From assembly GCA_963743885.1 (NCBI GenBank), contig CAVURJ010000002.1:433706-497705 (forward strand): a stretch of DNA of 64,000 bases. The letters run 5' to 3'. Both the position numbers and the translations under genes were made by a program. Shown here piece by piece: positions 41,205-62,881 of this stretch. Each line of letters begins with the position of its first letter. The stretch's first letter is position 1. The notes beneath the pieces were generated by a model. The model was not told the DNA's origin, ran no database searches, and was given only the letters and a program-made list of their open reading frames with translations. The DNA is from Candidatus Moraniibacteriota bacterium (GTDB taxonomy: Bacteria > Patescibacteriota > Minisyncoccia > Moranbacterales > UBA1568).

Positions 41205-41297
41205 GTATCTAGTATCTTGTATTTTGTATCTAGTATTTTGTATCTGGTATCCACTCCCCTCTCTTGCCTCCTTCGTCTTACCTCTCATCTCTTCCTA

Positions 41298-41999
41298 TCA
41301 GCTGATGATATATTTCCCCTTGCGATCATCATGTGTGATGCGGCCCTGCTCGAGTGCAATGACACGCTTGCCGATCTTGTCGACGATACCCTTGTTATGG
41401 GTCGCAAGGATCACGGTTGTACCAAAGGAATTGATCTCGAGCAGAAGCTTGATGATATCAGCGGTCGAGACGGGATCGAGGTTGCCGGTCGGTTCATCAG
41501 CGATGATTACCTTGGGACGATGGATGAGAGCACGCGCCAAAGAGACACGCTGCTGCTCGCCACCAGAAAGCTGCTTCGGGAACTGATGCATCTTGCTGCC
41601 GAGACCGACGATCTCGAGGATCTCCGGCACTTCAGCCTGAATCTCTTCAGTGCTCTTGCCATCCACCTCGAGCGCATACGCGACATTCTCAAAAGCGGTC
41701 TTCTGCGGCAGCAGCTTGAAATCCTGAAAGACGGTTCCAATCTGACGCCGAAAAAACGGCAAGTGCTTGCGGTTGATCGCGCCGATCGGCCGGCCATTGA
41801 AGTACACCTCGCCGGAGCTCGGAATCTCTTCCGCATAGATAAGCTTGAGCAGCGTCGATTTGCCCACCCCACTATGACCGACGAGCGAGATGAACTCACC
41901 CGGGAAGATGGAAAAATCGATATCCTCGAGCACTTTAATATCTCCAGGGAAGACCTTGGAGACATTTTCGAAACGGATGATGGGGGTATTCTCTGGCAT
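41298..41999 (-). CDS. ftsE: Cell division ATP-binding protein FtsE (ABC ATPase), 233 aa
   Basis: Walker A GHSGVGKST, ABC signature LSGGEQQR, Walker B VIIADEPTGNLD. Confidence 0.9.
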   Translation of the reverse strand: MPENTPIIRFENVSKVFPGDIKVLEDIDFSIFPGEFISLVGHSGVGKSTLLKLIYAEEIPSSGEVYFNGRPIGAINRKHLPFFRRQIGTVFQDFKLLPQKTAFENVAYALEVDGKSTEEIQAEVPEILEIVGLGSKMHQFPKQLSGGEQQRVSLARALIHRPKVIIADEPTGNLDPVSTADIIKLLLEINSFGTTVILATHNKGIVDKIGKRVIALEQGRITHDDRKGKYIIS

Positions 42000-42134
42000 A
42001 AAACAGCTTTTTTCTTTTGTCTTTTAAAAATGTGCGCTTGCGATTCTTACCACGAGTAACGAGTAATCAGTAATGAGCGACTTGGATTCCCTCTTTATTC
42101 CTAGTTACTAGTTACGAATTACCAATTACGCATT

Positions 42135-43217
42135 TTATACATTATTATTTTTACTGAAAAATCGGAGTTCACTTTCGATGAACATGTCGAGGTCGCCATC
42201 GAGCACTCCTTGCGCATTGCTCGTTTCGGCAGCGGTCCGGTGATCCTTGACCATCGTATACGGGTGGAGCACGTAAGAGCGGATCTGATTGCCCCACTCG
42301 GCGCTTTTGACCTCGCCGCGGAGCTTGCGCTTCTCCTCTTCCTGCTCTTCTATCATTTTTTGCACCAGCTTGCTACGGAGCATCTTCATGGCCTCCTCGC
42401 GATTCTGGAGCTGCGAACGTTCACTCTGGCAGGCAGCGACGAGATTGGTCGGGATATGTGTGATACGCACGGCACTCTCAGTCTTGTTCACATTCTGGCC
42501 GCCGGCACCCTGCGAGCGATACGTATCGATACGTAAGTCTTCCGTCTTGATCTCGACGGTCTTATCGTCATCAATGACCGGCATGACCTCTACCGCCGCA
42601 AACGACGTCTGGCGGAGACTGTTCGCATTAAAAGGTGATAGCCGCACCAGCCGATGGATACCGGCCTCGCCGTGCAGGTAGCCGTAGGCATACGCACCGG
42701 AAAGCTCGATCGTTGCGCTCTTGATCCCAGCCTCGCCGCCACGCGACTCATCGAGCACGACGCTCTTCCAGCCGCGACGTTCAGCATAACGGATATACAT
42801 GCGATAGAGCATCTCGGCCCAGTCCTGAGCATCGGCGCCGCCGGCGCCGCTCCGAATAGTGAGGAGCGCGCTCGCATGGTCATACTCCCCGCCCAGGAGG
42901 GCGCGGAATTCCCAATCATCGATCGCTTTCTCGGCCTCGGCATATTCGCGCCCGATATCGGCGAGTGTCGCCTCATCGAGATCATCCATAGCCGCGAATC
43001 CTTCGATATCAGACAAAGATCGATCCAGCCGACCAAAAGAGGCGCGATCAGACTCTATCGACTCGAGTTCCTGCATGATGCGGCCCGCCCGCTTGGGATC
43101 ATCCCAAAATCCGGACTTGCCGCTCTCAGCGCGGAGTTCCTCCGCACGGGCAGTCTTCCCTGGCCAGTCAAAGATAGTCCTGCAGGTGCAGGAGTTTTTG
43201 TCGAAGAACGGCTATCT
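42135..43217 (-). CDS. prfB: Peptide chain release factor 2 with programmed +1 frameshift
   Basis: Short ORF0 MQDKIAVLRQKLLHLQDYL ends at CTT TGA C (plus 43157-43163); the +1 frame continues DWPGKTARAEELRAESGKSGFWDDPKRAGRIMQELESIES... through the GGQ motif (RSQGAGGQNVNKTESAVRITHIPT). Confidence 0.85.
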
Positions 43218-43270
43218 TGTCTTGCATAGCATCCATACGCATTTCAGTATACCATATCTTCCGCTAGGAC

Positions 43271-43303
43271 AAAACAAAAACAGGCTATAAAGCCTGTTTT
43301 TTT
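43271..43303. terminator. Bidirectional terminator CAGGCT-ATAA-AGCCTG with flanking A/T runs
   Basis: 6-bp stem with T7 on the plus side and T-rich sequence on the minus side, between tRNA-Thr and prfB. Confidence 0.55.
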
Positions 43304-43304
43304 C

Positions 43305-43380
43305 TGGAGCCACCTCGCGGGATCGAACCGCGGACCTACACGTTACGAGTGTGTCGCTCTGCCAACTGAGCTAAGGTGGC
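43305..43380 (-). tRNA. tRNA-Thr (anticodon CGT), CCA encoded
   Basis: Minus strand reads GCCACCT-TA-GCTC-AGTTGGCA-GAGC-G-ACACA-CTCGTAA-CGTGT-AGGTC-CGCGG-TTCGATC-CCGCG-AGGTGGC-T-CCA. Confidence 0.85.
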
Positions 43381-43392
43381 TTTTAAATTACC

Positions 43393-43833
43393 TCACGTAA
43401 GAGTACCACGTAACCGCGCCCGATTACTAGGTCTCCGATTCAATCTCCCTCTACCCTTATTCAAAGCAGCAAAAGTCGGAGTGAACGCATCGCAATTCGG
43501 ACATATCAGACGCAAATTGCTTTCTTTGTTATTGGACCAATCACCATCGATATGATCCGCTACCAACGGCACAAGATTTGTCGATGGATTGACCTCCGCC
43601 CATCCACAGAGACAGCATTTATTGCCAAACTTCCGACGTAAATAACGTTTTATATGTTTGGAAACTACTCCTATGTTTCTCAAGCCCGTTATCGTACCCG
43701 ATTTCCAACGCTCAATGAAAATACCATATTGGTATTCCTGTTGGCATGCATTGCTGCAATATTTATACCGAGCCCGCGCAACTTCCTTGCCGCAAACCGG
43801 ACATTCAGGAAGAGCTTTTTTATGTCTTGGCAT
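43393..43833 (-). CDS. HNH endonuclease, 146 aa
   Basis: CPVCGK..., CCLCGW..., LVADHIDGDWSNNKESNLRLICPNCD: an HNH motif with zinc-binding Cys pairs. Confidence 0.65.
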   Translation of the reverse strand: MPRHKKALPECPVCGKEVARARYKYCSNACQQEYQYGIFIERWKSGTITGLRNIGVVSKHIKRYLRRKFGNKCCLCGWAEVNPSTNLVPLVADHIDGDWSNNKESNLRLICPNCDAFTPTFAALNKGRGRLNRRPSNRARLRGTLT

Positions 43834-43958
43834 AACCCTATACTACCAAATTGTCAACCAAAGCGCAACTTGACGATGGTAAGCATCTATTATCAAGCGA
43901 GATAAGCGAAACGGAATTATACTTTCGTTTTTAGAACGTGAACACCCCAACAGGGCGC

Positions 43959-43987
43959 TTGACAAAAATATAAAAAAGGAGTATAAT
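43959..43987 (+). promoter_or_regulatory. Consensus sigma70 promoter TTGACA-17-TATAAT
   Basis: TTGACA at 43959-43964, a 17-nt spacer, TATAAT at 43982-43987; a ~95-nt leader with a GGGGC-AGCC-GCCCC hairpin precedes the ATG at 44088. Confidence 0.6.
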
Positions 43988-44087
43988 TTAAAATCGAGTA
44001 CCTTAAGTCGGGGCAGCCGCCCCTAGCCGCTTTTCCCCCCAACCTATACCCCCTCGAGTCATCTATGGGGTTAAAAAGGAGACGAAA

Positions 44088-44657
44088 ATGTCGGCTACTA
44101 CTATCGTCGTACTGCCCCCTGGCGAACAAGAAGAACTGCGTACCGCTTTCAGGTTTGCACGTGGAAAGAATAAGTTCGGAAAGTGGCAAGGATGCAAACC
44201 GGGAACCGAAGAAAAGGACGAATATGACGACACTGCCGTATACGTCCTCGCCATCAACGAGAGAAAGGAGATCATCTTCGGAGTCCGGGTCATCACCAAG
44301 ACCCAAGAATTGCCGCTTCCAATCGAACGGTATGTTCCAGGAATCAATCCTCCCGTCGACAGCGTCGAATTCTCTCGCGCACTACGGGTCAGGTTCTCAC
44401 CGACGATGGATGCCACACGCATCTACCGACTGCTCTTCAAGATGTACCATACCGCGCCGGAAACGTACGCGAGTATCCACAAAGAATTCAAGGCGAGCCT
44501 TCTCCTCCAGTTCGGCCAATTCATGAGGGTACTTCCGGCCAGGCCGTTCCGCAAAGGCAAGGATGTCTTCGTCCCAGTAGAGTTCCTAGTCGAAGAGGCG
44601 CGACAGGCGCTGTTCTCTGCTAGCAACGAGGAACATCAGATCAGTAGGGCGGCCTGA
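44088..44657 (+). CDS. Hypothetical protein; possible LuxI-like/GNAT-fold N-acyl (amino acid or homoserine lactone) synthase, 189 aa
   Basis: ..EELRTAFRFARGKNKFGKWQGCKPGTEEKDEYDDTAVYVLAINERKEIIFGVRVI.. resembles the LuxI pattern R..VF...LGW....GxE.DxYD....Y.L.....G..R. Weak, by-eye only. Confidence 0.25.
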   Translation: MSATTIVVLPPGEQEELRTAFRFARGKNKFGKWQGCKPGTEEKDEYDDTAVYVLAINERKEIIFGVRVITKTQELPLPIERYVPGINPPVDSVEFSRALRVRFSPTMDATRIYRLLFKMYHTAPETYASIHKEFKASLLLQFGQFMRVLPARPFRKGKDVFVPVEFLVEEARQALFSASNEEHQISRAA

Positions 44658-44749
44658 ACTGCCGACTATGCGGTGCAACACAAGAAAAGCGGACCCTCCA
44701 CGTGAGGCATCCGCTTTTTTCTTTTTTACCAAAAATCGGCGATAGAAGT

Positions 44750-45811: not shown

Positions 45812-45827
45812 TAATCATTTATCCGTA

Positions 45828-46193: not shown

Positions 46194-46258
46194 ATCACAC
46201 CTTCCGGCCTGGCGGCAAGGGATAAGAAAAAGAGCCCCAGAAAGGGCTCCACAGATAC

Positions 46259-46627: not shown

Positions 46628-46745
46628 AAAAAATACCTTACTACAATACGAGGACACCAACTTTTGACACGACCACTATTTCGTGGTATCACAAAATATG
46701 CTTTTTAACAACATCCATCAGGCAAAGAAAAGGAGGGTTGCACCA

Positions 46746-47078: not shown

Positions 47079-47141
47079 TACTATCGTCCAAAGAGGAGCA
47101 TGATCACATCTCCTCTTTTTTCATGCGTCTACCTGATCCCG

Positions 47142-48099: not shown

Positions 48100-48672
48100 T
48101 CACTCGCCGAAGAGCGTCTCATGCAGCCGGTCGCGGCCAGAGCCGGTCTTGGCCGAGAAACGGATGACCGGTGATGGAGCGAACTCCTCTTCTAGCTTGG
48201 CAATGTTCTTGGCAGTATCGGATTGCCTCCCCTTGTCAGCTTTGTTAGCAAGTATGAGCACGTTCCGGCCATACTCACGGAGGAGCGCATAGGTCTCGCG
48301 ATCGGAATCCTTGGCACCGACCTCGGCATCGACGACAAGCACCGCCCACTTGAGGTCAATCGCCATATTGGCCGCATACCACGAGAGGTAGCCCGCAATC
48401 TTCTTCCGGAGCTTCTCAGGCAGCTTGGCATACCCGTAGCCAGGCAGATCAGCGATATACCAACTGTCATTGATGAGGAAATAGTTGATCTCGGTCGTGC
48501 GGCCAGGACGCGAATTGGAATGTGCCAAATCACGTTGCCCCACAAGCGTATTGATAATGCTCGATTTTCCAGCATTGGAACGGCCGAAAAAAGCGACCGT
48601 CGGACGCGACGGCTGCGGCATCCCCTCGGAGCCGATGACACCTTTTATGAATTGTGCAGAAGTGATTTTCAT
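48100..48672 (-). CDS. engB: Ribosome biogenesis GTP-binding protein EngB/YihA, 190 aa
   Basis: G1 GRSNAGKSS, G3 DLPGYGY, G4 NKADK; typical EngB length. Confidence 0.85.
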   Translation of the reverse strand: MKITSAQFIKGVIGSEGMPQPSRPTVAFFGRSNAGKSSIINTLVGQRDLAHSNSRPGRTTEINYFLINDSWYIADLPGYGYAKLPEKLRKKIAGYLSWYAANMAIDLKWAVLVVDAEVGAKDSDRETYALLREYGRNVLILANKADKGRQSDTAKNIAKLEEEFAPSPVIRFSAKTGSGRDRLHETLFGE

Positions 48673-49179
48673 GTAGGACAGTATATGGTATCTGGTATCT
48701 AGTATTTAGTATACCGTATCTCGTATAAAGAGAAAGAAAAAAGGCGTCGCGATAACTTCATCGTCGACGCCTACACGCTCCACTTTACCGTCAAGAAACT
48801 ACGTCCGATAGGCGGTTTGGGCGATGCCACATCCGTCTCCCGGCTTGACCCGAAGCTTCGGTACTCTGCGTCAGGATCTTCTCAACAGAGATTCTCGATT
48901 CGGCGTTCACCTGCCGGCTCACCTTAGCTTTCGGTCTGGGTCGAGTAGCATAACGCTACGAACTCTGCCCTTTCAGCGCACAAGAGAGTTCCCTCGTGCC
49001 ACTCCAGGAATCATGTACGATCCCCTCTACTTTTCAAGCTTCAGCGCGTGCGGGAAGAGTCTACCAGCCAAAGGCCGCCATGTCAATGACTCATTGACCC
49101 TTGTTACAAACAGGCAACATCTTTCGGCTCTAATGAAGCAAATACATGTGATGCAAAGGTATTGAAACATTACGAAACA

Positions 49180-50067: not shown

Positions 50068-50134
50068 GCAACCGCTCGAAACTAAAAGGAACTCTCCGGA
50101 GTTCCTTTTTTCTTTTTTCAGTAAAATCTGGTGT

Positions 50135-50178
50135 TTTGGAAATGTAACATAATCTGACGGCCGTCGGATTATGTTACT
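50135..50178. repeat. R1 promoter/operator-like repeat, copy a (34-bp near-perfect palindrome GTAACATAATCTGACGGCCGTCGGATTATGTTAC)
   Basis: Contains the TGACGGCCGTC core shared with the other R1 copies. Overlaps the 3' end of the PaaX-like gene. Confidence 0.6.
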
Positions 50179-50773
50179 TTTTAGTTTTGTGGAGTTTCTG
50201 TGTTTTTGTAGATTTTTTGGAGCTAAAGAAATGTTTTTTAAGCTTCTGCTCATTATCAATCCAATCGACCGACATGATACGCACGAAAGAATCCGCTCGA
50301 TAGAGCGACACGAGCTCTGCGAGCTGCTTCTCGCACGGATGCGGCGAGACGAAGACGCTTTGCTGGATCCTATAGAATTTCAACTCCCAAAGGTGCTCAC
50401 GAAGAATAGTACGGAACTCGCGACTTTTCTCTGGGATATCAAACATCACGACGCGCCATTTACCATCCCATTGCCGCTTGTTCTTGAACTTGATTGAGTT
50501 ACCAAAGAGGAACTGGATACGCGCCTGGCGCTTTCCTTCCTCCGTCAAAACGAGCTTGAATGACCCATCCGGCTGCACGACCTCCCTCACGAGCTTTTCA
50601 TTACAAAGCCGCCTCACGGATCGTTTGATGCTCCGCTTATCGACCTCCTTCCACTCCCGTATCAATATCCCGAGCTTCCGATAGTACCGGATGGATGAAG
50701 TCTCCATACCGAGAGCAATTCCTCCCACAAGGAGGATGAGCAATTTCTGCTGCACTGGTCCAACCCTGAACAT
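50174..50773 (-). CDS. PaaX-family transcriptional regulator (N-terminal wHTH + PaaX_C domain), 199 aa
   Basis: N-terminus ..LLILLVGGIALGMETSSIRYYRKLGI..SIKRSVRRLCNEKLVREVVQPDGSFKLVLTEEGK.. and C-terminus WDGKWRVVMFDIPEKSREFRTILREHLWELKFYRIQQSVFVSPHP match the PaaX N and C patterns. Confidence 0.6.
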   Translation of the reverse strand: MFRVGPVQQKLLILLVGGIALGMETSSIRYYRKLGILIREWKEVDKRSIKRSVRRLCNEKLVREVVQPDGSFKLVLTEEGKRQARIQFLFGNSIKFKNKRQWDGKWRVVMFDIPEKSREFRTILREHLWELKFYRIQQSVFVSPHPCEKQLAELVSLYRADSFVRIMSVDWIDNEQKLKKHFFSSKKSTKTQKLHKTKK

Positions 50774-50794
50774 ATGATTTTACTTTACGTTTTT

Positions 50795-50925
50795 TTTCAT
50801 TTTCCCACCTTTTCAAATTGTAACACGAAATGACGGCCGTCATTTCAGGTAACAATTCAAAAACAGATACTAAATCATGAAAAGGTGACGCGAGCCGACG
50901 GCCGTCATTTGGGGTAACAATTGGT
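50795..50925. repeat. R1 copies b and c (ATGACGGCCGTCAT palindrome boxes; TTGTTA..TTACAAT promoter-like on the minus strand)
   Basis: b: TTGTAACACGAAATGACGGCCGTCATTTCAGGTAACAA. c: GGTGACGCGAGCCGACGGCCGTCATTTGGGGTAACAATT. Confidence 0.6.
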
Positions 50926-50987
50926 TTGGGGAAGATTTGGGGAGGTTTTGGGGAGATAGGAGGGAATCGGATGCCACGATTGGGTTG

Positions 50988-51112
50988 GGTACGTAATCAA
51001 TTACGTAATTATCTTTCTTTCCTCTCTAAAAAAGTGTTTACCACCGTCGTCCATGGACGACGTGGCTTGCCTGCCCGCCCCTGGAGAGACCACTTTTCTT
51101 CTCCTAAAGATT
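50988..51112. repeat. R2 repeat copy 1 (TACGTAATcAATTACGTAA box + CCACCGTCGTCCATGGACGACGTGG terminator palindrome)
   Basis: Near-identical to 54768-54895. On the minus strand the palindrome is followed by T6, so it terminates gene 51104-52600. Confidence 0.65.
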
Positions 51113-52600
51113 TCTTTCCAGTCGCTGGCTAATAATTTTCCCTATCTCCTTAAAAAGTTTTTTTCTCTTCTCTTGCGTATCTTCGTCTCTTTCATTTGAA
51201 AGATTTTCATAATAATGATCAACAACATTATCAGAAACTATATGAAGATAAGAAAATCTTTTCTTTGTCTCATTACAAGCCTTCGCCATGTGGCCAATTT
51301 CTGGATCAATAAAAACTCCATGCTTTTGAAAAAACTCAACAGCATCTTTTGTCTCATCAATTACTGATCCACACGTAACATGGCTTCCAAACAAAACATC
51401 CTGACGATCAGAAATTTCATTTTCAAAAATATTGCTCCACGTAATAGAATCTCCATGTACATAGCTCTCTGAACCACTCGCTATCCATTCGTTCGGAACA
51501 ATACCAGATTTAAGACTCCCAAGCTTTCCTATATATACAAATGTTGTGAATAAATGAAACCGAGCTAAAAATTTTATCATAAAATAAGCAGCGTCTCCCC
51601 AGATACTAAATTGACACCCAAGCAAAAGCACTCTGCAAGCACCAATATTTCCAATTTTCCATCTAAAATCTCCATCTCCATCAAACTCCACACCTTCAAA
51701 CAACCCAATACGATCAATATTCCCAAAAAGAATAACATCTGCCGTCGGAATACTCTCCAAGTTGGTATCTTTAAACGCCTGAAAAATCCTCTCATCATCA
51801 GCATGGATATAGGACACTTCTTTCTTCTTGTTCAGATTGCAAAAATAAGTAGCAACAAGATTGGCATAATGACGTATATAATCATATCCAGGGAAACAAC
51901 AGAGATAAAGCGTATCTCCATCTAAGAAAACCGTTGGCCTTTCAAAATTAAATAACTTATCATTCTTCTCATCGGTCGAGACATGCGCACTCCGATCATG
52001 ACTACCTATAACGCGCACTTTCGAAAATTCATCCTGTTTCGACCGAATAAGATGATGCATCTTCATTTCTATATACCGATGAAGAGCATCCCCCATAGAA
52101 TGTTCACTTGATAGACAGGTTGAAACATCGAAATGTTCCTTATTCGACGAAATATTCTTAACGAATTGCAAAACAGTATAGTCTCGTAACTCCGGCACTT
52201 CCTTCAACGAAACAAATTGAACCACTTCATGCTTTCCTTCTTCCATGTTGCGCGCTTCACTTTCATCGGCCACCTCGGCTACATAATACAATCCGAGCCA
52301 GTGCGTATTCTGAATAATCATTTTCTTCGTCGTCAAAAGCTCTAGGCTCGTAATGCGAAGATTGGTTTCTTCTAGAATTTCACGAATAAGTGAAGACTCA
52401 ATATCTTCTCCAAATTCAACTGTTCCGCCAGGCAAAAGCCATGCTCCCGCGCCAATCCTTTGATCTGATTTCTTTTTCAAAAGTAACACGCGTTCCTTGG
52501 TCTTATCAAAAACGATAGCCCGCGCATAAAAACGAAATATCGGCTGATTTTGATCACTGCTCATACGCTCAAATAGAAAACTTACACTACCAGTATACAC
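51104..52600 (-). CDS. Nudix hydrolase fused to a nucleoside phosphorylase/AMP-nucleosidase-like (PNP_UDP_1) domain, 498 aa
   Basis: N-terminal Nudix box GGTVEFGEDIESSLIREILEETNL. C-terminal ..VILFGNIDRIGL..ACRVLLLGCQFSIWGDAAYF..GSVIDETKDAVEFFQKHGVFIDPEIGHMAKAC..YLHIVSDNV resembles the PNP/MTA/AMP nucleosidase family. Confidence 0.55.
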   Translation of the reverse strand: MYTGSVSFLFERMSSDQNQPIFRFYARAIVFDKTKERVLLLKKKSDQRIGAGAWLLPGGTVEFGEDIESSLIREILEETNLRITSLELLTTKKMIIQNTHWLGLYYVAEVADESEARNMEEGKHEVVQFVSLKEVPELRDYTVLQFVKNISSNKEHFDVSTCLSSEHSMGDALHRYIEMKMHHLIRSKQDEFSKVRVIGSHDRSAHVSTDEKNDKLFNFERPTVFLDGDTLYLCCFPGYDYIRHYANLVATYFCNLNKKKEVSYIHADDERIFQAFKDTNLESIPTADVILFGNIDRIGLFEGVEFDGDGDFRWKIGNIGACRVLLLGCQFSIWGDAAYFMIKFLARFHLFTTFVYIGKLGSLKSGIVPNEWIASGSESYVHGDSITWSNIFENEISDRQDVLFGSHVTCGSVIDETKDAVEFFQKHGVFIDPEIGHMAKACNETKKRFSYLHIVSDNVVDHYYENLSNERDEDTQEKRKKLFKEIGKIISQRLERNL

Positions 52601-52647
52601 CCATCCAAAAACCTAGTCAGTTCTCAAATTTGACACAAAATCTAGTG

Positions 52648-52815
52648 TTTTGGAAAGGTGACGCGAGCCGACCCTCCGGAGGCGGGTAAACGGCCACCCG
52701 CCTAGACTCGGCGAGGCTGGTCATTTGGGGTTACTTTTTGGAAATGAGAAGATTGAGAGGAAAACGGCTGGGTTGGGTACGTAATCAATTACGTAATTAT
52801 CTTTCTTTCCTCTCA
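52648..52815. repeat. R1 copy d (interrupted by a 47-nt hairpin insertion) plus partial R2 copy 2
   Basis: TTTTGGAAAGGTGACGCGAGCCGAC[cctccggaggcgggtaaacggccacccgcctagactcggcgaggctg]GTCATTTGGGGTTAC, then GGGTACGTAATCAATTACGTAATTATCTTTCTTTCCTCTC. Confidence 0.55.
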
Positions 52816-52872
52816 AGAAAAAAGGATGGCCTTTACGGTCATCCTTTGCAAGTCATTGCCTGATCTTTGCGT

Positions 52873-53334
52873 TCAAGCCGAAACCAAAACCTCCCAGCCA
52901 CGCTCCCGAAGCTCGCCGCGAAGCTTCATCCACAGCTTGCCGAGATGGTTCAGCCCCTGCCAGTCCGGACCGCGCCCCCAGAACGAATCCTTGGGCGAAT
53001 CCTCGACAAGCTCGGCGTTACCAGTCTCGAGTAGCTTCTCGCGGACATACGCATGCTGTTCAATCTTCATCCGGAGAAACTTCTCCATGATATCAAGCTT
53101 GATATCGTTCCAATCAGCACGAACCTTGTCCTGATACTTCCGGCCGATCTTTTTGGAATCATGCGCCGACATCGCCGTCCGGATCTCTTCGACAATAGCC
53201 GGATCGGTAAACTTCGCCGCCTGATATGCATGCTCGACGGTCATCCAAATGACACCATCTTGCAAAATCGCAAACGACGAGAAATTGGAAAGGAAATACC
53301 GCTTACCTTCGTAAAACAGAACTTTCTCTTGCAT
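52873..53334 (-). CDS. NADAR (YbiA/DUF1768) domain protein, ~153 aa
   Basis: MQEKVLFYEGKRYFLSNFSSFAI...TVEHAYQAAKF...KKIGRKYQ...LLETGNAELVEDSPKDSFWGRGPDWQGLNHLGKLWMKLR: the full NADAR signature. Start trimmed to the internal Met. Confidence 0.8.
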   Translation of the reverse strand: MQEKVLFYEGKRYFLSNFSSFAILQDGVIWMTVEHAYQAAKFTDPAIVEEIRTAMSAHDSKKIGRKYQDKVRADWNDIKLDIMEKFLRMKIEQHAYVREKLLETGNAELVEDSPKDSFWGRGPDWQGLNHLGKLWMKLRGELRERGWEVLVSA

Positions 53335-53419
53335 GTCCCACCTCCTGCCAGAAAAAAGAAACGTAAAAGAACTTCCGTAGAGTATCGCAAGAAATAGCCA
53401 AGAAGTCAATTTCGAATGA

Positions 53420-53560
53420 TTTTGGAAAGGTGACGCGAGCCGACGGCCGTCATTTGGGGTAACAATTCTGATTTGTGAGGTTTTGGGATGAGGACAAATT
53501 AGGTACGTAATCAATTACGTAATTATCTTTCTTTCCTCTCTAAAAAAGGTGTTTAGTTAA
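53420..53560. repeat. R1 copy e plus partial R2 copy 3
   Basis: TTTTGGAAAGGTGACGCGAGCCGACGGCCGTCATTTGGGGTAACAATT ... AGGTACGTAATCAATTACGTAATTATCTTTCTTTCCTCTCTAAAAAAGGTGTTTAG. Confidence 0.6.
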
Positions 53561-53638
53561 TTTTCTTCTTAAGTAAAGAAAAGGAGGTCCGTCAGATCCT
53601 GACAAACCCCCTATTTAGCGCTTAATCGAAGCGAGGCG

Positions 53639-54061
53639 CTATCCGCTAACTGGGCATTCAACTCCGAGCGGAACCTCGATACCATTGAGCTCCATAGTCT
53701 GGCGCCGTACTTCAAAAAAGGCATACCAGTTGGAAATCTCGTTGAGATCGATAGCACTCGGAATCTGGAGCAGCCGATTCAGGTATGCGAAGGCTTTCGG
53801 TGAAGAAAGCGCCCACTCCCTTGCCATGGTAGTGACATCAGCATTGCCAGAAAACTCCACCAGGCACTTGGCCATCGATGCATCGACGGCGTAGAGCAAG
53901 GACAAGACTTCTTGGACTGCCTCGGTGGGCGTTGTCCACATCTGGCCGGCATCCAATGCTATCAATATCCCGAGTGGTGATTCCATCCGTTTTCTGATGC
54001 TGGCGAACAACAGCGCATCAGATGCATCACCTGGCATGAACACAAACTTGCAATCTGACAT
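53639..54061 (-). CDS. Hypothetical protein, 140 aa
   Basis: KFVFMPGDAS...ILIALDAGQMW.. looks Rossmann-like. Family unknown. Confidence 0.3.
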   Translation of the reverse strand: MSDCKFVFMPGDASDALLFASIRKRMESPLGILIALDAGQMWTTPTEAVQEVLSLLYAVDASMAKCLVEFSGNADVTTMAREWALSSPKAFAYLNRLLQIPSAIDLNEISNWYAFFEVRRQTMELNGIEVPLGVECPVSG

Positions 54062-54072
54062 GGTAGACCTCC

Positions 54073-54474
54073 TCAGACGACTGTGGTAGCGGTACCGGAA
54101 AGATACTTCCGGATCTCGTCGACATAGCGTACAGGCACGATGACAGAGCCCTTTCTCGTACTAGTGTTGTAGTTCGAAAAGATAAACTCCGATTCGGGCC
54201 TCCGATGACTTCTCGTGTAGAGTAATACGAGGTCCTTCCGGAACATCCCCTTCATCGTCACGTTGTACGGTGGCGATACCATCTCGTAAGCCGTGATAAC
54301 GAGTGAGACGTCGATACTCGGTCCGCCTTCCCTCCCGAACCAAAAAACAACTGGGGGCGGTTCGCATTCAAGCACTGTGAGGCATCCGAGCGAAAGCAGG
54401 CAGCGCTGTGCGTTCGATCCCTCGAATACGCCAAGTGTGTGTGTTTGCGACGAATCGCTGTTTGGATGGGTCAT
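54073..54474 (-). CDS. Hypothetical protein, 133 aa
   Basis: Co-operonic with 53639-54061. A degenerate R1-like sequence lies upstream (54590-54650). Confidence 0.3.
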   Translation of the reverse strand: MTHPNSDSSQTHTLGVFEGSNAQRCLLSLGCLTVLECEPPPVVFWFGREGGPSIDVSLVITAYEMVSPPYNVTMKGMFRKDLVLLYTRSHRRPESEFIFSNYNTSTRKGSVIVPVRYVDEIRKYLSGTATTVV

Positions 54475-54767
54475 CCGACTTCTCCTTGTAAAAAGAACTG
54501 CCCTATCATGACGTAGAGCATCGCCGTTACTGCCTTACGACAGCCACCTCCGCATCCGCAGAGGAATTCAGGGTATAGTAGCCTACACGCAAAAACATGT
54601 CAATTCCGCATGAAATCAGGGGTTTTGAAAATGTATCATAATTCCACCTTCCGGAGACAGGCGAGTGATCTGGAATATGTCTTACTATTTTCGCGATTGC
54701 GTAAATTGTAAGACTTTTTGTTTAAGAGAAAAAAGGGAGGAAAAGATGTGGCAGAAAAAGAATGAAT

Positions 54768-54895
54768 ACGTAATCAATTACGTAATTATCTTTCTTTCCT
54801 CTCTAAAAAAGGTGTTTACCACCGTCGTCCATGGACGACGTGGCTTGCCTGCCCGTCTCTGGAGGGACCACTTTTCTTCTTCTTAGAAAACAGTT
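54768..54895. repeat. R2 repeat copy 4 (full, with the CGTCGTCCATGGACGACG palindrome)
   Basis: TACGTAATCAATTACGTAATTATCTTTCTTTCCTCTCTAAAAAAGGTGTTTACCACCGTCGTCCATGGACGACGTGGCTTGCCTGCCCG... Confidence 0.65.
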
Positions 54896-54901
54896 CTTAT
54901 A

Positions 54902-55792
54902 TTAAAACAGGTCGTCAAGAAAAACCTTTATAGCAAGTGCTGGACCAGTAATATCAGTAATATCAAATTTTATTGTAAAAGAATGCTGGGAACTATCTAT
55001 AAGAATTTTATAACTAACAATATCTTTATAAAAACGGCCCGCACTCAAAAATCTCTCTACTTTGCCCAATAACTCTTTTGTATTAAAAAATTCACCATCC
55101 TTTTTAATTTCTTCCTCAAGATTTTCCGCTTGAAATTTTCTAACAACGGCCAATGGTAGTATCCGTCTTAAAAGAAGAATGCATGCATTTGATTTAGCAT
55201 GTTCGTAATTAAAATTAAATTCTTCACATAATGCCGCAATATCTTTCGGAACCGCCTTTAAAAGAGTGGCGGAGAAAATTGTTACCGTAGCAACTTTTTT
55301 GTCTGTAGGCTCATCCACATTTTCTGAAGATTCTAATTCACCAGGAAAAATTAATGGGCCATTATCCATATAATTATTCAAAAGAAAACCTTTATTTTGA
55401 AATAGGGCTTCCAATGGACCTATAAGACTACGAAGCTTATAGATTCTCTCATTATTTTGTTGGGTCTTGTAATCTTTCTTCTCTAGTTTTCCAAGCTCAT
55501 CTCGCCAAGAAATCAACATGCGATGTGTAAGCATTGATAAACTCTCAATCATCTTTTCTGGTATCTCAATTTCTACAGCATGAGGTTCCCCGTCACACAT
55601 CTTGTTAGGGTCTTCATAATTCAAGTTAAAACTATCAATTTTATTTCCAATATCAACGTATGCTTCCAGCAAATCATCGATCTGCTCACGAACATCATCA
55701 TTGACAGATATGTGTCTTAAATCCTGTATATCCTTAAGAAAACGATAAATCGCAATCCTAAAATATTTCAAAGTTGTAGAATAAATCCTCAT
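54902..55792 (-). CDS. Hypothetical protein in the AT-rich block, 296 aa
   Basis: Low-GC ORF. No known motif. Confidence 0.35.
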   Translation of the reverse strand: MRIYSTTLKYFRIAIYRFLKDIQDLRHISVNDDVREQIDDLLEAYVDIGNKIDSFNLNYEDPNKMCDGEPHAVEIEIPEKMIESLSMLTHRMLISWRDELGKLEKKDYKTQQNNERIYKLRSLIGPLEALFQNKGFLLNNYMDNGPLIFPGELESSENVDEPTDKKVATVTIFSATLLKAVPKDIAALCEEFNFNYEHAKSNACILLLRRILPLAVVRKFQAENLEEEIKKDGEFFNTKELLGKVERFLSAGRFYKDIVSYKILIDSSQHSFTIKFDITDITGPALAIKVFLDDLF

Positions 55793-56888: not shown

Positions 56889-56993
56889 CGAAAGAAAAAA
56901 TCAAGAAAGTGTTTGTTTATGCCTCAAGTATATCATTTTCCCTTAAAAAAGGTACTTGACCCCTTTTCTTCTTGTTTTCTTCTCTCATAAAAT

Positions 56994-57512: not shown

Positions 57513-57518
57513 ATGAAT

Positions 57519-58596: not shown

Positions 58597-58602
58597 AAAA
58601 TT

Positions 58603-58632
58603 AGTTAAAAAGCGGGGCCAAAATGGCCCCGC
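58603..58632 (-). terminator. Terminator GCGGGGCC-AAAAT-GGCCCCGC + U-run downstream of dnaK
   Basis: 8-bp GC stem. On the minus strand it is followed by TTTTT. Confidence 0.65.
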
Positions 58633-58639
58633 TTATTAG

Positions 58640-60604
58640 TTACTTTTTCTCCTCGTCAGCTGGCTTGTTCCCTTCGACATGCTCAGGGCCGTTGGCTTCG
58701 GCTGCGGGCTCGGTTTCAGCATCTTTAGGCTGCTCTGTAGCACCCGAGGCTCCGGCTTCGCCTGTACCCTGTCCACTATCCCCTGTACCCTGTGGTGCGG
58801 CTTGTGCCGCGGCATACAGTTTCTCGCCAATCTTCTGGGCTGCCTGGGAGAGGGCTTCGGTCGCCTTCTTGATCACTTCGAGGTCGTCGCCATTCTTCAC
58901 TTTGGCGAGCTCAGCGATAGCATCTTCGACCGGCTTCTTCTCTTCGGCTGTCAGCTTGTCGCCCGCATCCTTCATTGCCTTTTCGGTCGTATAGGAGAGC
59001 GTGTCAGCCATGTTGCGCGCTTCGATCAGTTCCTTCTTACGCTTGTCTTCCTCGGCGTGGAGCTCGGCATCCTTCTTCATGCGCTCGATCTCATCCTTGG
59101 AAAGTCCAGTGGACGCTTCGATGCGGATGTTCTGAGACTTACTGGTCGCCTTGTCCTTGGCCGTGACGGTCAGGATGCCGGAGGCGTCGATGTCGAAGGT
59201 TACCTCGACCTGTGGCACGCCGCGCGGAGCGGGAGCGATGCCATCGAGGATGAATTGTCCGAGCGACTTGTTGTCACCTGCCATCTCGCGCTCGCCCTGG
59301 AGCACATGGATCTGCACGGACGGCTGGTTGTCAGCCGCGGTCGAGAAGACCTGGGAGCGCGATACCGGCACAGTCGTATTGCGGTCGATGAGCGGCGTAC
59401 GCACACCACCGAGCGTCTCGATACCGAAGGTGAGCGGGGTCACATCGAGGAGGAGCACATCCTTCACGCTGCCCTCGAGCACACCACCCTGGATGGCCGC
59501 GCCGGCGGCGACGACTTCATCCGGATTGACGGTGATGTTCGGCTTCTTGCCGAAGAACTTCTCGACGCTTGCGAGCACGAGCGGCATACGGGTCATACCA
59601 CCGACCAGCACCACTTCGTTGATGTCGCTCGGGGAGAGCTTGGCATCAGCGAGGGCTTTCTTCACTGGCTCAAAAGTCGCCTCCACCAGGTCATGCACCA
59701 GCTCCTCGAGCTTGGCGCGGGTCATCTTGATGAGGAGGTGCTTCGGACCATTGGCATCGCTCGTGATGAACGGCTGGTTGATCTCGGTATCCTGCGCGGT
59801 CGAGAGTTCGATCTTGGCCTTCTCGGCGGATTCCTTGATGCGCTGGAGCGCGAGCGGATCGCGGCCTAGGTCGATGCCTTCCTGCTTCTTGAACTCACCC
59901 AAGATCCAGTGGATGATGCGCTGGTCGAAGTCGTCACCACCTAAGTGTGTATCACCGTTGGTCGATTTCACTTCGACGGTGTCCTCGGCTACTTCCAGGA
60001 TGGAGATATCGAAGGTACCGCCACCGAGGTCATACACGGCGATCTTCTCGTCTTTCTTCTTGTTGAAACCATAGGCGAGCGCGGCCGCGGTCGGCTCGTT
60101 GATGATGCGGCGGACATTGAAGCCAGCGATCGTGCCTGCCTCCATGGTCGCCTTGCGCTGCGAGTCGTCGAAATACGCCGGGACGGTGATGACGGCATCG
60201 GTGATCTTCTCTCCGAGCTTCTCTTCGGCATCGGCCTTCAGCTTGGCGAGGATCATAGCGGAGATCTCCTGCGGTGTGTATTCCTTGCCGCCCATGACGA
60301 TCTTCACGCCTTCACCGGCCTGGATGATCTTGTACGGGAGGGTCTTCGCGTCGCGGCTTACTTCCTCGTCATTGAAATGACGGCCGATCAAGCGCTTCAC
60401 GGAGAAGAGCGTGTTTTCCGGGTTGGTCACGCCCTGGCGCTTGGCCAGGAGGCCCACCAGGCGCTCACCGGTCTTGGAGATAGCCACCATCGACGGGGTC
60501 GTGCGGTTGCCTTCCTTGTTCTCAAGGATGGTCGGGCTGCCACCCTCCACCACGGCCATGCAGGAGTTAGTTGTTCCCAAATCGATACCTAAGATCTTGC
60601 TCAT
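58640..60604 (-). CDS. dnaK: Molecular chaperone DnaK (Hsp70), 654 aa
   Basis: [22 protein letters not shown]..., [12 protein letters not shown], and a C-terminal EEKK tail: canonical Hsp70. Confidence 0.95.
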
Positions 60605-60795
60605 ATTCGTAATTATTAGTCAGTTAACGGGTTAACGCGTTAACGAGTTTATTAATGCGATGAATTAGATAATTTACTATCCAGTTAACGGGTTTGTAAG
60701 AGTCCGAACACCGAATTAACGGGTTAACGGGTTCTTAAGAAACCAACTAACAGGTTACTGTGTTAACGAGTTTATTAATGCGATGAATTAAATGC

Positions 60796-61188
60796 TTATT
60801 TACGTTGGATAAATTCTTTTTCTTTTCTTTTTTTCTCGAGATAACTGATGAATGCTCCTATTTGACCGGAAAGTTTTTCCAACTCATCCATAATTCTGTC
60901 AAAATCCTTCTTTGCGACGTATCCGATAGCGAATGCTATATGCATCTGATTTCTTGTCTCTCCCGCCGAGCCCTTGGCTATCTTCAGGAAACGGATGAAT
61001 TCATTGTTATTGTTCTTCTCAAATCCCTCGACTATATTGGAACTGACTGACACTATAGCTCTCTGTATCTGATCTCTCAGACCGAAGTCTTTGGCAAACT
61101 TTCCTTGTGATGTAATATCGTATACATCCTTTGTCAAAGCCAAACTCGATTTCCAAATGTTCAGCTCTTCGAATTTTTGTATTTTCAT
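60796..61188 (-). CDS. Four-helix-bundle protein (23S rRNA intervening-sequence protein family), 130 aa
   Basis: FEELNIWKSSLALTKDVYDIT..FAKDFGLRDQIQRAIVSVSSNIVEGFEKNNNNEFIRFLKIAKGSAGETRNQMHIAFAIGYV matches the TIGR02436-type signature. Confidence 0.75.
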   Translation of the reverse strand: MKIQKFEELNIWKSSLALTKDVYDITSQGKFAKDFGLRDQIQRAIVSVSSNIVEGFEKNNNNEFIRFLKIAKGSAGETRNQMHIAFAIGYVAKKDFDRIMDELEKLSGQIGAFISYLEKKRKEKEFIQRK

Positions 61189-61297
61189 AACAACGTATCA
61201 GTTGTTCGGTTAACGAGTTCACGAGTTAACGGGTTGGGAATACAGACCTTGCATTTAATTAAACTCGTTAGCCCGTTAACGCGTTAACATATTAATT

Positions 61298-61849
61298 TTA
61301 ACGGACGATTACTCTTGCTGCTCGTATTACTTTGTCTCCGAGGCGGTAGCCTTTTTGGATGACTTTGGAGATTTGGTGATTGCTTTCTTCCTGTTCACTG
61401 TTCACTGCTGACTGTTCACTGTCTATGGCCTCGTGAATGGTAGGGTCGAACGCCTCCCCTTCCTTCGCTTCGATCGTCTGCATACCATTGTCAGTGAGGA
61501 CGGTCTCGAGCTGCTTCTCGATGTATTGGATGCCGACCACCCACGGGCTCTCCTTCTGTTCAGCCGGCACGTGCATCGTGGCGGAGCGGAAATTGTCGAG
61601 GACTGGGATGATATCGAGCACGAGCTTCTCTATCAGGTATCCGCCGAGCTCCTTCTGGGATTCCGCCTGGCGCTTCTTGTAGTTCTCGAAGTCCGCCTGG
61701 CAGCGCTTGAGATCGTTCAGATACTCTTCGGCCTTCGACTGCCACTCCGATTCTTCCTTCATTTCTTCGGTAATGGTCGTCGGCTCATCTGTATCAATAA
61801 TCTTCTCGTCGCCTGACTCTTCGACTTCTTGTTTCTTTTTGTGCGGCAT
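61298..61849 (-). CDS. grpE: Nucleotide exchange factor GrpE, 183 aa
   Basis: Coiled-coil N-terminus, then ..VLDNFRSATMHV.., FDPTIHEAI and GYRLGDKVIRAARVIV. Confidence 0.9.
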   Translation of the reverse strand: MPHKKKQEVEESGDEKIIDTDEPTTITEEMKEESEWQSKAEEYLNDLKRCQADFENYKKRQAESQKELGGYLIEKLVLDIIPVLDNFRSATMHVPAEQKESPWVVGIQYIEKQLETVLTDNGMQTIEAKEGEAFDPTIHEAIDSEQSAVNSEQEESNHQISKVIQKGYRLGDKVIRAARVIVR

Positions 61850-62006
61850 AGGCTTCTTATATAAATTCTAAACTCAAAATTACAAGCTCCAAATAAATCT
61901 CAAATCCGAAATTCAAACTTTTGAAATTGTGATTTTTGATTTATTTGGAAATTGGGATTTTGGATTTTGACATTTGACAGCTCGCTACGATTACCGACTC
62001 TCTTCA

Positions 62007-62750
62007 TCAGGAAAATGGGATAAAAAGGACAAGTATCAACGATGAGGAGAGCAGTTTCTTCATGTATTCGATCAGGGACTTATTCTTGGCGTACTCCATG
62101 CGCTTGGGACCGATGATAGCGAGCATACCGCGCTCACCTTCTTTGTTCTCATATGGCGCAACGATCATGGAGCAATTGTCGATACCGGAGATAGGGTTCT
62201 CGTCGCCGATGAAGATGCGGGTCTCACCGCTCTTCAGCTTGACCATGACGTCGTCGAGCTTCTCATCGAGCGAGTCGAGCGTCTCCACCAGACGGCAGAG
62301 CTCGTCGATCTCCTGGAACTCCGGCTTCTCGATGAGTTCCTTCATGCCGAAGTCATAGAGCTCGTCGCGGCCGATGATGCCGGAGACAGCCAGGTTGCCC
62401 GAGAGCGCCGAGAGGAGCTTGGCGGTGCTGCGACCCATGCGGGTCTGCTTGGCCTTCATCACGAGAAGCTCTTTCTGGAGCTTGCGCTGATCCTCGCGGG
62501 AAAGGTCCTCATCACCCATCATCTCTTCGACATACAGGCGATAGCCCTGATCGGTCGGGATGCGGCCGGCGGACGTGTGCGGCTGGTAGAGGTAGCCCTC
62601 CTCCTCGAGCGCCACCATATCGTTCCGAAGCGTCGCCGAAGACACCGGGAACTCGAAGTGCTCAAGGAGCGCCTGCGAGCCGACTGGCAGCGCGGTCTTG
62701 GTATACAGCTCGACGATGGCCGAGAGGACTTGTTTTTGACGAGAGTTCAT
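62007..62750 (-). CDS. hrcA: Heat-inducible transcription repressor HrcA (short form), 247 aa
   Basis: MNSRQKQVLSAIVELYTKTALPVGSQALLEHFEFPVSSATLRNDMVALEEEGYLYQPHTSAGRIPTDQGYRLYV. Confidence 0.85.
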   Translation of the reverse strand: MNSRQKQVLSAIVELYTKTALPVGSQALLEHFEFPVSSATLRNDMVALEEEGYLYQPHTSAGRIPTDQGYRLYVEEMMGDEDLSREDQRKLQKELLVMKAKQTRMGRSTAKLLSALSGNLAVSGIIGRDELYDFGMKELIEKPEFQEIDELCRLVETLDSLDEKLDDVMVKLKSGETRIFIGDENPISGIDNCSMIVAPYENKEGERGMLAIIGPKRMEYAKNKSLIEYMKKLLSSSLILVLFIPFS

Positions 62751-62881
62751 AGGGAAGCCGGTATTATGTATCCGGTATTATGTATCATGTATAAGATGCG
62801 AGATTCTTCGCTTCGCTCAGAATGACCAAAATTACAAATTTTCGGATCATTCGTATCGATATATACAGTATAAAATATGGT

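Follow-up and report, generated by a model that had tools for sequence, protein, structure and literature searches.

Intervening sequences (IVSs) of 23S rRNA are the closest described systems to the element considered here. In Coxiella burnetii, the IVS carries tandem GACAGAT heptamers (three and a degenerate fourth) just 5′ of the ATG of S23p, a gene of the IVP family; the heptamer is present in three or two copies among strains, the ends of the IVS form a 28-bp stem where RNase III cuts at the first heptamer, and the open reading frame (ORF) is reported as decaying (PMC4990558). Brucella IVSs contain palindromes and repeated motifs and are cut by RNase III (PMC2743711), and a link of PF05635, the Pfam family of IVP, to diversity-generating retroelements (DGRs) is mentioned in PMC10053308. 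The Coxiella report (PMC4990558) is the sole one we found that mentions heptamers, in one IVS; the literature gave no general link of IVP genes to flanking tandem repeats or to the short tandemly repeated repetitive (STRR) sequences, although full-text coverage was limited and this absence is no proof of novelty. Here we describe tandem repeat tracts with 7–8-nt units in a stretch of 64,000 nt (the window) from a Candidatus Moraniibacteriota bacterium (GenBank assembly GCA_963743885.1, contig CAVURJ010000002.1), in which an IVP gene between grpE and dnaK is bracketed by such tracts.

Three further systems provide points of comparison. The STRR heptamers of heterocystous cyanobacteria were reportedly described by Mazel et al. 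in 1990. They are non-coding tandem heptamers, with several unit families per genome, often in inverted sets capable of forming hairpins, and their function is unknown. Avd, the accessory protein of DGRs, binds nucleic acid and reverse transcriptase. Among ribbon-helix-helix regulators, omega of pSM19035 binds WATCACW heptads and MetJ binds 8-bp met boxes. Our data lead us to favour, with a confidence slightly above even, the reading that the tracts of the window are building blocks of IVS-like and STRR-like RNA elements, which sit in transcribed spacers and have inverted 7–8-nt arrays as their ends.

An IVP gene bracketed by octamer arrays

Coordinates are those of the window, whose gene map is Pfam-supported and ORF-based, and genes, transcribed elements and tracts lie on the minus strand unless stated otherwise. 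Between grpE (61298–61849) and dnaK (58640–60604) there is a 130-aa four-helix-bundle gene (60796–61188), which the initial annotation had overlooked as the key to the octamers around it. The gene belongs to the 23S_rRNA_IVP family (PF05635, E = 1.3e-33; TIGR02436, E = 2e-32) and matches two solved structures of the IVP family that were both deposited as five chains, PDB 2gsc (E = 2e-15) and 2rld. A cassette inserted between grpE and dnaK carries it as cargo and lies in an operon spacer, not in helix 9, 25 or 45 of 23S rRNA. Neither a reverse transcriptase nor a template/variable repeat pair is found beside the gene, whose neighbours are grpE and dnaK.

Octamer arrays stand directly upstream of the IVP start (61209–61288). 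The distal array (GTTAACGC GTTAACGG GCTAACGA GTTTAA, 61262–61300) supplies the left arm of a local hairpin and also the 5′ arm of a long-range stem around the gene, while the proximal array (CCGTTAAC TCGTGAAC TCGTTAAC, 61209–61235) supplies the right arm of a gene-less hairpin module at 61200–61297. On the other side of the gene, the dnaK-proximal array (CTCGTTAAC GCGTTAAC CCGTTAAC TG, preceded by GCATTAATAAA; 60612–60655) ends 17 nt before the dnaK ATG (60604) and provides the 3′ arm of the long-range stem. The distal 5′ array and 60608–60651 make up an inverted repeat (I5) of 44 nt with 80% complementarity, and in folds of the RNA between the grpE stop and dnaK start codons, 61262–61300 pairs with 60612–60655 in both the minimum free energy and the centroid structure (z = -2.8). 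Further 3′ arrays at 60712–60793, directly after the IVP stop (CCCGTTAAC CCGTTAAT and CTCGTTAACACAGTAAC, with a second copy of the 46-nt block TAATTCATCGCATTAATAAACTCGTTAAC), comprise the direct-repeat families D7, D11 and D17 and the inverted repeat I14, and are predicted to be alternative pairing partners for the 5′ array.

We compared the cassette with related loci that were retrieved and labelled with L-numbers. In L133, a near relative with the order grpE–IVP–dnaK, the 5′ spacer is identical at 107 of 109 positions (98.2%), whereas coding identity is 70% for grpE, 77% for dnaK and 88% at the nucleotide level for IVP, and synonymous sites beside the spacer are 54–71% conserved. Constraint on the arrays is therefore stronger than on synonymous sites, and they are more conserved than the neighbouring coding DNA. 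The 3′ spacer is 86% identical with one 32-nt indel, which falls at 60712–60793, and the last ~72 nt before the dnaK ATG are ~97% identical. The IVP protein is 96% identical to that of L133 with third positions at 71%, so that the protein is under purifying selection.

Proteins 65–100% identical to the IVP of the window are numerous in Patescibacteria. In all clade members looked at, a (GTTAACGN)x3 array ends 2–4 nt before the ATG and a (NCGTTAAC)x2-3 array starts at the stop codon; the GTTAACGN and NCGTTAAC octamers bracket the IVP gene, and their complementary arms fold into an enclosing stem. The clade cassette was found in four contexts, namely grpE–IVP–dnaK (L133–L141), mraY–IVP–pgk (L142–L149), fic–IVP–ABC transporter (L150) and IVP–SMC in Jacksonbacteria (L152). 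The lengths of the 5′ and 3′ spacers vary, from 30 and 41 nt in L134 to 109 and 191 nt in the window and 182 and 197 nt in L140.

IVP genes and their flanking repeats in other bacteria

The combination of gene and arrays is found again at unrelated loci in several phyla, and one occurrence is a true 23S rRNA IVS. In five further phyla, the majority of the examples inspected had it. Distant IVP genes, from CPR (candidate phyla radiation) bacteria, cyanobacteria, Bacteroidota, Gemmatimonadota and Azospirillum, are mostly flanked by short repeats of their own, which are usually inverted. The distant CPR genes (~30% identity) are flanked by TAGCTNN/NNAGCTA or TAGGAAT/ATTCCTA heptads, and on the 3′ side the array extends into the ATG of dnaK or cysS, the gene that follows. 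A search of 72,556 plasmids gave mostly cyanobacterial IVP matches, 15 of 25 being from Nostocales, and the flanking units were inspected in 12 plasmid loci. Complementary heptads were seen in Nostoc edaphicum (L155, GGGAACA/TGTTCCC), N. punctiforme (L157, CAGGAGT/ACTCCTG), Nostoc ATCC 53789 and Geminocystis (L153 and L163, GGGAAAA/TTTTCCC), Picosynechococcus (L164, GGAGATA/TATCTCC), Riemerella (L158, GGTTCAA/TTGAACC) and Azospirillum (L165, AGAGGAC/GTCCTCT), the last being the true 23S rRNA IVS. PCC 7120 and Stanieria (L154 and L161) have CTGCCYT units, Pseudanabaena (L162) has 17 copies of AAAAGCT and 10 of AAAAGCC, Gemmatirosa (L166) has CCTGCCCT-type units on both sides, and Calothrix (L156) has no array, only a single AAAAGCT remnant. 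The plasmid-borne IVP genes of L162 (between cas6 and cas4) and L164 (between cas10 and cmr3) lie in CRISPR-cas operons on the same strand as the cas genes.

The complementarity of the 5′ and 3′ flanks was measured as an ungapped score against 100 shuffles in 18 cassettes. In 15 of them it lies above all 100 shuffles, and the matrix of complementarity scores is block-diagonal by unit class. Furthermore, 20 of 22 cassettes have their IVP gene within an operon and co-oriented with the gene that follows, which fits a dependence on host transcription. The repeat unit largely follows the IVP protein clade, across genera: the proteins of L154 and L161 are 80% identical and have their unit in common, those of L155 and L163 (72%) have similar units, those of L157 and L164 (64%) have an AGGAG core in common, and L156, 74% identical to L162, has kept the AAAAGCT remnant.

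Short-period arrays in the spacers of the window

FtsX relatives (best match 78% amino acid identity) place the window in Candidatus Moranbacteria (Patescibacteria/CPR), and no rRNA lies in the window. The initial annotation had reported heptamer and octamer tracts upstream of several genes, made of different units in one periodic architecture that resembles no standard promoter or operator layout. These tracts are all present, far beyond chance in shuffle tests, and both the common architecture and the unusual layout were borne out. When pattern searches were scored against dinucleotide shuffles of the window sequence, (ATACNNN)x3 with at most one mismatch gave 15 matches with 0.10 expected, GTTAACNNGTTAAC occurred 7 times with 0.03 expected, and (GTAAYNN)x3 occurred 4 times with 0.02 expected. 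The 13 exact (ATACNNN)x3 matches are confined to three sites on the minus strand, the sense of the downstream gene. Among the period-7/8 arrays reported by Tandem Repeats Finder, 12 of 16 are non-coding, in a window with 12.7% non-coding DNA (binomial p = 2e-8). The units are imperfect, with 1–3 variable positions each, and no Rfam family matches any tract, even at E <= 1.

A spacer-by-spacer test of the 36 spacers of at least 60 nt, with 200 shuffles each, found a significant period-7/8 array in seven (0/200 shuffles in each case), all between 41 and 63 kb and upstream of ftsX, ftsE, engB, dnaK, the four-helix-bundle gene, grpE and hrcA. The other 29 have no significant array, and positions 1–41 kb hold none except a weak TTAC array on the plus strand (29690–29717), whose four heptads CACTTAC TACTTAT TACTAGA CACTAAT lie 16 nt 5′ of an ATG at 29734 and match at 16 of 24 positions at period 7 (p = 0.01, shuffle test). 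Thus, the tracts are not a general property of start codons, and most genes in the 36-spacer scan lack them. The notion that they hug translation starts holds in part: arrays abut the IVP start and stop codons, but elsewhere the closeness is partly trivial because the spacers are short. In the window and 52 related loci (843 kb), there are 74 period-7 arrays compared to 16 in block shuffles, with many different units; short-period arrays are therefore a trait of the group.

Period-7 and period-8 arrays also occur in coding sequence, in a surface loop of grpE at 61391–61422 and 61354–61381 (DSEQSAVNSEQEES) and in the low-complexity C-terminal tail of DnaK at 58761–58793. The grpE coding stretch differs in L133.

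Gene-less hairpins

Three versions of the element carry no gene and are predicted to form stable hairpins, and one of these modules is present in multiple copies. The tracts before grpE and between prfB (42135–43076) and ftsE (41298–41999) had been described as periodic, the latter with a facing inverted set; the units and the inverted set are there, and our analysis adds that both tracts are inverted pairs able to form hairpins. The hrcA–grpE hairpin (61867–61970) is made of ~7-nt CAAAAT/ATTTTG units with 51-nt arms and a 2-nt loop (inverted repeat I2, 76% complementary), stops 17 nt short of the grpE ATG and has a predicted energy of -30.8 kcal/mol (z = -5.8), as good a fold being reached by 0/200 shuffles. 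The hrcA leader of L108 contains a similar hairpin. Upstream of IVP, the second hairpin (61200–61297) folds at -25.3 kcal/mol (z = -3.2, 0/200 shuffles) and has homologues in L133 and in two different spacers of L140, in which the consensus is kept with 2 compensatory pairs. In the prfB–ftsE spacer (42051–42129), GTAATTG GTAATTC GTAACTA GTAACTA and CATTACTGATTACTCGTTACTCG face each other across a 25-nt loop, at -23.6 kcal/mol (z = -2.2, 4/200 shuffles) and with a mismatch at each unit boundary of the stem. This spacer is 135 nt long in the window and usually 4–50 nt, without arrays, in the 52 relatives; the hairpin is absent from most of them and from L159, a 94% relative with a 33-nt spacer.

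ATAC heptads and the leaders of hrcA

Arrays with an ATAC core occur at three sites in the 64 kb of the window. The initial annotation had noted heptads before ftsX (40284–41198/41204), and these are present; the whole ftsE–ftsX spacer proved to be 13 heptads in one register (41205–41295), six of them purine-rich GNAAGAG followed by seven NNGATAC, which run into an ATG at 41204. The ftsX start is likely at 41198. Reading the array as a translated N-terminal extension of FtsX was ruled out by the spacer length, which differs by 17 nt between the window and L159. The spacer is 99 nt long in the window and usually 5–40 nt in the 52 relatives, without an array. More distant relatives have arrays of their own at ftsE–ftsX or prfB–ftsE (TACGAA/TTCGTA, GTAT/ATAC), frequently with an array and its reverse complement on the two sides of a loop. 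By this comparison, the tracts are insertions and not conserved sites. The near relatives L159 and L160 (FtsE 94% identical at the amino acid level) keep the ftsX array with five ATAC units compared to seven in the window; all ATAC cores are kept, and the six differences all fall at three variable positions (hypergeometric p ~0.003). L159 and L160 come from different samples and have the same array sequence, and a second assembly of the sample of the window (Logan), the one other assembly with exactly the proteins of the window, has identical spacer lengths and gene spacings. The motif TGnTACAAT is conserved at the 3′ end of ftsE, 6–10 nt before the ftsX ATG, in many relatives (L001–L052, around position 9990 of these loci) and is lost in the window.

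The engB array consists of seven NNNATAC heptads (48681–48729) between a terminator-like hairpin and the ATG of engB (48100–48672), with variation confined to 3 of 7 positions (p = 0.0065). Just 5′ of it ends a candidate non-coding RNA of ~300 nt (48745–49086), which has a strong promoter (TTGACA-17-TGnTAGACT, 49086–49058) and a terminal GC hairpin with a T-run; it has no Rfam match at E <= 1, and no gene is called there in the other assembly. The third array lies before hrcA (62007–62750), where five ATACNNN heptads with a 14-nt super-period (62758–62792) end 7 nt before the ATG. A promoter, TTGACG-17-TATACT (10/12 promoter score), with a CIRCE (controlling inverted repeat of chaperone expression) operator overlapping its -35 box lies upstream at 62867–62908, so that the heptads are in a transcribed leader of ~110 nt; the CIRCE was found with 1 mismatch, compared to 0 expected. 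A scan for sigma-70-like promoters found no site inside the arrays. RNA folding of the ftsX, engB and hrcA arrays gave unstructured to weak results (z = +0.3, -1.5 and -1.7).

The same CIRCE–promoter layout is found in 45 distinct CPR hrcA loci (hrcA leaders of L053–L132). In 11 of them only 1–11 nt separate the -10 box from the start codon, as could be the case for leaderless transcripts; the other leaders are 18–195 nt long, and most of the long ones are significant hairpins. About a dozen consist of inverted 7–9-nt arrays, e.g. AAGTTC/AACTTT, ATATAAC or GAAAATA, and ATAC heptads are found again in the hrcA leader of a distant CPR relative (L103). Elements have thus been inserted repeatedly between promoter and start codon, which is why the tracts appear to hug start codons. 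The 11 hrcA loci, together with the TGnTACAAT motif, are signs that leaderless transcripts may be common in these CPR bacteria.

Two observations concern the ends of such insertions. The hrcA leaders of L081, L085 and L115 contain insertions of 130–140 nt with perfect inverted ends and, on either side, a duplicated (A)TGAA(T) of which the start codon is part. The insertions before hrcA (100 nt) and ftsX (90 nt) in the window each have ATGA at either end (62847–62850, 41285–41288); this recurrence may be a target-site duplication or chance, 4 nt being weak evidence.

The preferred explanation and its alternatives

Slipped-strand switches, a genome-wide family of regulator sites and RNA-level elements had been proposed as candidates for the tracts, and of these the RNA-level elements are the best supported. 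The tracts lie on the sense strand of transcribed spacers and leaders, mostly as inverted pairs predicted to fold into long stems, and also fit the anatomy of rRNA IVSs processed by RNase III. By analogy with those IVSs, the stems in polycistronic RNA would be cut by RNase III. The predicted cutting would split the cistrons from each other, and the downstream gene would keep a short leader without a Shine–Dalgarno (SD) sequence. Such a leader would fit a bacterium in which starts that are leaderless or have no SD sequence seem to be frequent. The arrays may grow and shrink by slippage of units with the core kept, and the pentameric Avd-like IVP protein may recognise its own repeat unit (GUUAACGN as RNA).

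Several results weigh against this explanation. Covariation within clade A, the clade of the window, is minimal, because all copies share one unit, and GTTAAC is a palindrome, which inflates the apparent complementarity between arrays. Two cassettes (L162 and L166) have direct instead of inverted flanks and two others (L154 and L156) have no clear complementary pair, while the regular mismatches in the stems may hinder RNase III. The stem model leaves out the ATAC arrays, which lack a complementary partner in the window and do not fold. IVP genes with ATAC/GTAT, GTAAY or CAAAAT units at their flanks were looked for in ~1.3 Mb of related loci and none was found, and a scan of viral contigs for (ATACNNN)x5 returned mostly giant-virus bins, none with an IVP gene. 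The solo ATAC arrays probably represent half-elements, or platforms to which a factor acting in trans would bind, and could also be sources of -10-like boxes; they are the weakest part of the explanation.

We also consider, as a tentative possibility, that IVP pentamers are sequence-specific binders of tandem 7–8-nt repeats, at about one unit per subunit, with orphan arrays, such as the ATAC heptads of the window, and STRRs being sites for IVP paralogues in trans. IVP and its arrays would then be a self-contained selfish or regulatory RNA module that can sit in any highly transcribed RNA, such as rRNA, operon spacers or cas operons.

It is less probable, and in our view unlikely, that the element acts at the DNA level, its arrays being terminal inverted repeats or recombinase sites of an element like a miniature inverted-repeat transposable element (MITE) and the RNA stems incidental. 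The same cassette does occur at unrelated loci in different CPR phyla with IVPs 65–75% identical, so that IVP across these phyla is about as conserved as FtsX within Moranbacteria. Many IVP contigs are short, as expected for repeats, the gene-less module has two copies in L140, and the literature describes IVS ends as typical of mobile elements; the perfect inverted ends and TGAA(T) duplications in the hrcA leaders of L081, L085 and L115 and the ATGA at both ends of the ftsX and hrcA insertions of the window would fit as well. However, the cassettes are accompanied by no transposase or recombinase, IVP is not a member of any known transposase family, and its co-orientation with the next gene inside an operon (20/22 cassettes) fits a dependence on host transcription. 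A mobile origin would account for how the element arose, but not for its 98% conservation in place.

That the tracts are functionless by-products of neutral slippage, a microsatellite-like filler in unconstrained sequence, is improbable, and pure slippage we consider rejected or unlikely, as we do phase variation and a genome-wide regulon. The presence of the tracts is lineage-specific, those of ftsX and ftsE missing in most of the 52 relatives and the GTAAY hairpin even in the 94% relative; unit number differs (seven vs five ATAC units), as does the length of the IVP 5′ spacer (30, 109 and 182 nt), and heptamer arrays are also found in tolerant coding loops (grpE 61391–61422, dnaK tail 58761–58793). 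Filler of this kind would not, however, be kept at 98% in the 5′ spacer beside synonymous sites at 54–71%. Moreover, orthologous ATAC arrays differ outside their core, the 5′ and 3′ arrays of a cassette remain complementary although the unit is not the same from one cassette to the next, and units follow the IVP clade from genus to genus.

Operator arrays for a DNA-binding repressor that occupies consecutive 7–8-bp units, as omega and MetJ do, are very unlikely. The contiguous units, direct and inverted, with an invariant 4–6-bp core and variable spacer positions are what such a repressor would bind, CGTTAACG is a palindromic octamer like the met box, and the ATAC core is common to three unlinked genes. 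The hrcA array, in contrast, lies in the leader, ~70–105 nt downstream of both the -10 box and CIRCE, and does not cover the promoter; most arrays are in internal operon spacers and some are 3′ of IVP. Among 27 neighbouring ORFs scanned, which did not cover every small ORF, there is no gene for a ribbon-helix-helix regulator, the only regulator-like products being HrcA, whose operator is CIRCE, and a weak PaaX-like match (50174–50773). Arrays are also absent at the same genes in most of the 52 relatives, and this together with the 29 of 36 spacers that have none speaks against the genome-wide family of regulator sites in the form first proposed.

We regard it as very doubtful indeed that the ATAC arrays are stacked -10-like boxes, serving as promoters for leaderless or short-leader transcripts after the insertion displaced the original promoter. 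TATACT stands 7 nt before the engB ATG and GATACT 6 nt before the ATG at 41204; engB would need its own promoter because a terminator-like hairpin precedes it; and both the TGnTACAAT of relatives, 6–10 nt before the ftsX ATG and lost in the window, and the 11 of 45 hrcA genes with only 1–11 nt from -10 box to start codon would agree with such a role. Yet the consensus scan found no promoter in the arrays, the L159 array ends GATACAGGATT-ATG with no usable -10 box, the hrcA array sits in a leader that already has a strong promoter, and the inverted pairs are left unexplained.

A heat-shock RNA thermometer was discarded as a general explanation, since the same elements lie beside ftsX, engB, cysS, pgk and cas genes. 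Finally, phase-variable contingency loci, in which a change in unit number switches downstream expression, are hardly credible: short tandem repeats do stand by start codons, and unit number does change over evolutionary time between related lineages (seven vs five ATAC units in the 94% relative), but the units are degenerate at 1–3 positions, the second assembly from this sample shows no change in spacer length, L159 and L160 do not differ although they come from different samples, the 5′ spacer is kept at 98% in L133 and the genes (ftsX, engB, hrcA, dnaK) are housekeeping genes.

Other features of the window

The prfB ORF (42135–43211), when read from its first ATG, begins at position 29 of the PCRF profile, and the frame is open upstream to 43211; the usual programmed frameshift or an upstream start may account for this. 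A 609-aa ORF on the plus strand (40230–42059) runs antisense across ftsX and ftsE and scored well in a simple codon model. It was preferred as a gene by a codon-usage caller, which also replaced engB, and was dropped for the Pfam-supported map.

Several further repeats lie elsewhere. An ORF of 477 aa (24056–25489) contains a 27-bp unit repeated ~24 times at 94% identity (24578–25233), which encodes the 9-residue repeat MRESSQVGV/MRESSQVRE. A GC-rich repeat (AAAAAAGCGGCCTACCAGGTCGCCGCGCATTGGCGCTTGCCTGATAGGTCGCTT, 59–125 nt) has three spacer copies that are 95–98% identical (745–869, 10081–10205 and 18001–18059), and an imperfect palindrome at 36587–36748 has 79-nt arms, 72% complementary, with a 4-nt loop and is not made of short tandem units. 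The low-GC island at 50100–55000 (GC 37–47%) holds several more families: TACGTAATCAATTACGTAATTATCTTTCTTTCCTCTC and a palindrome centred on GACGGCCGTC occur four times each, the former reading on the minus strand as an inverted TTACGTAA pair with a purine-rich stretch; a 78-nt repeat occurs twice; and an 11-nt TTTGGGGAGGA array lies at 50925–50955. At its edge, the 199-aa protein of 50174–50773 has, besides the PaaX-like match, a weak Cas2-like one (TIGR01573, E = 8e-6, just above the cut-off).

Comparison with known systems

By analogy, the element between grpE and dnaK is best viewed as an IVS-type element outside rRNA, which has the same anatomy as the Coxiella IVS but lies in an mRNA operon. 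Two orphans may possibly be explained together in this way, namely the IVP/S23p family, which is widespread, of unknown function and mainly described from rRNA IVSs, and the short tandem heptamers. If the link is true, IVS-type elements colonise mRNA operons of CPR bacteria (heat shock, cell division, glycolysis) and cyanobacterial cas operons, and probably shape mRNA processing and translation starts where SD sequences are little used; if IVP does bind the repeats, IVP and STRRs would have a function after ~30 years. For annotation, such arrays break assemblies and mislead start-codon calls, as with the longest ftsX ORF, which reads through the array, and they should not be called promoters or phase-variation loci.

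With ribbon-helix-helix operators such as those of omega and MetJ, the arrays have in common contiguous 7- or 8-bp units, direct or inverted, with a conserved core. In contrast to these operators, they lie in leaders and internal spacers and flank a gene on both sides, with no cognate regulator found. Like repetitive extragenic palindromic (REP) and bacterial interspersed mosaic elements (BIME), enterobacterial repetitive intergenic consensus (ERIC) sequences and MITEs, the gene-less hairpins are small, multi-copy, lineage-specific insertions in transcribed spacers with possible roles in mRNA processing or stability; they differ in that their arms are internally periodic and that the protein-coding version carries IVP, not a transposase. 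The IVP family includes Avd-like pentameric four-helix bundles, although the IVP gene of the window, unlike that of Avd, has no adjacent reverse transcriptase or template/variable repeats. STRRs resemble the arrays as tandem heptamers in non-coding DNA with inverted, hairpin-capable sets, and heptamers bracket IVP genes on Nostoc plasmids in the way that the octamers do in the cassette; the host here is a CPR bacterium of the Moranbacteria, not a heterocystous cyanobacterium, and its units are ATAC, GTAAY and GTTAAC.

The closest likeness is to the rRNA IVSs with an S23p/IVP ORF of Coxiella, Leptospira and Azospirillum. In both, a PF05635 ORF is bracketed by complementary, stem-forming ends, and tandem 7–8-nt repeats whose number varies between strains or lineages stand directly 5′ of the ORF without an SD sequence. 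In contrast to those IVSs, the element of the window lies between protein genes of a heat-shock operon instead of helix 9, 25 or 45 of 23S rRNA, its unit is an octamer with a palindromic core, and it has several arrays per side and an extra gene-less hairpin. Moreover, its IVP ORF is under purifying selection, whereas that of Coxiella is reported to be decaying.

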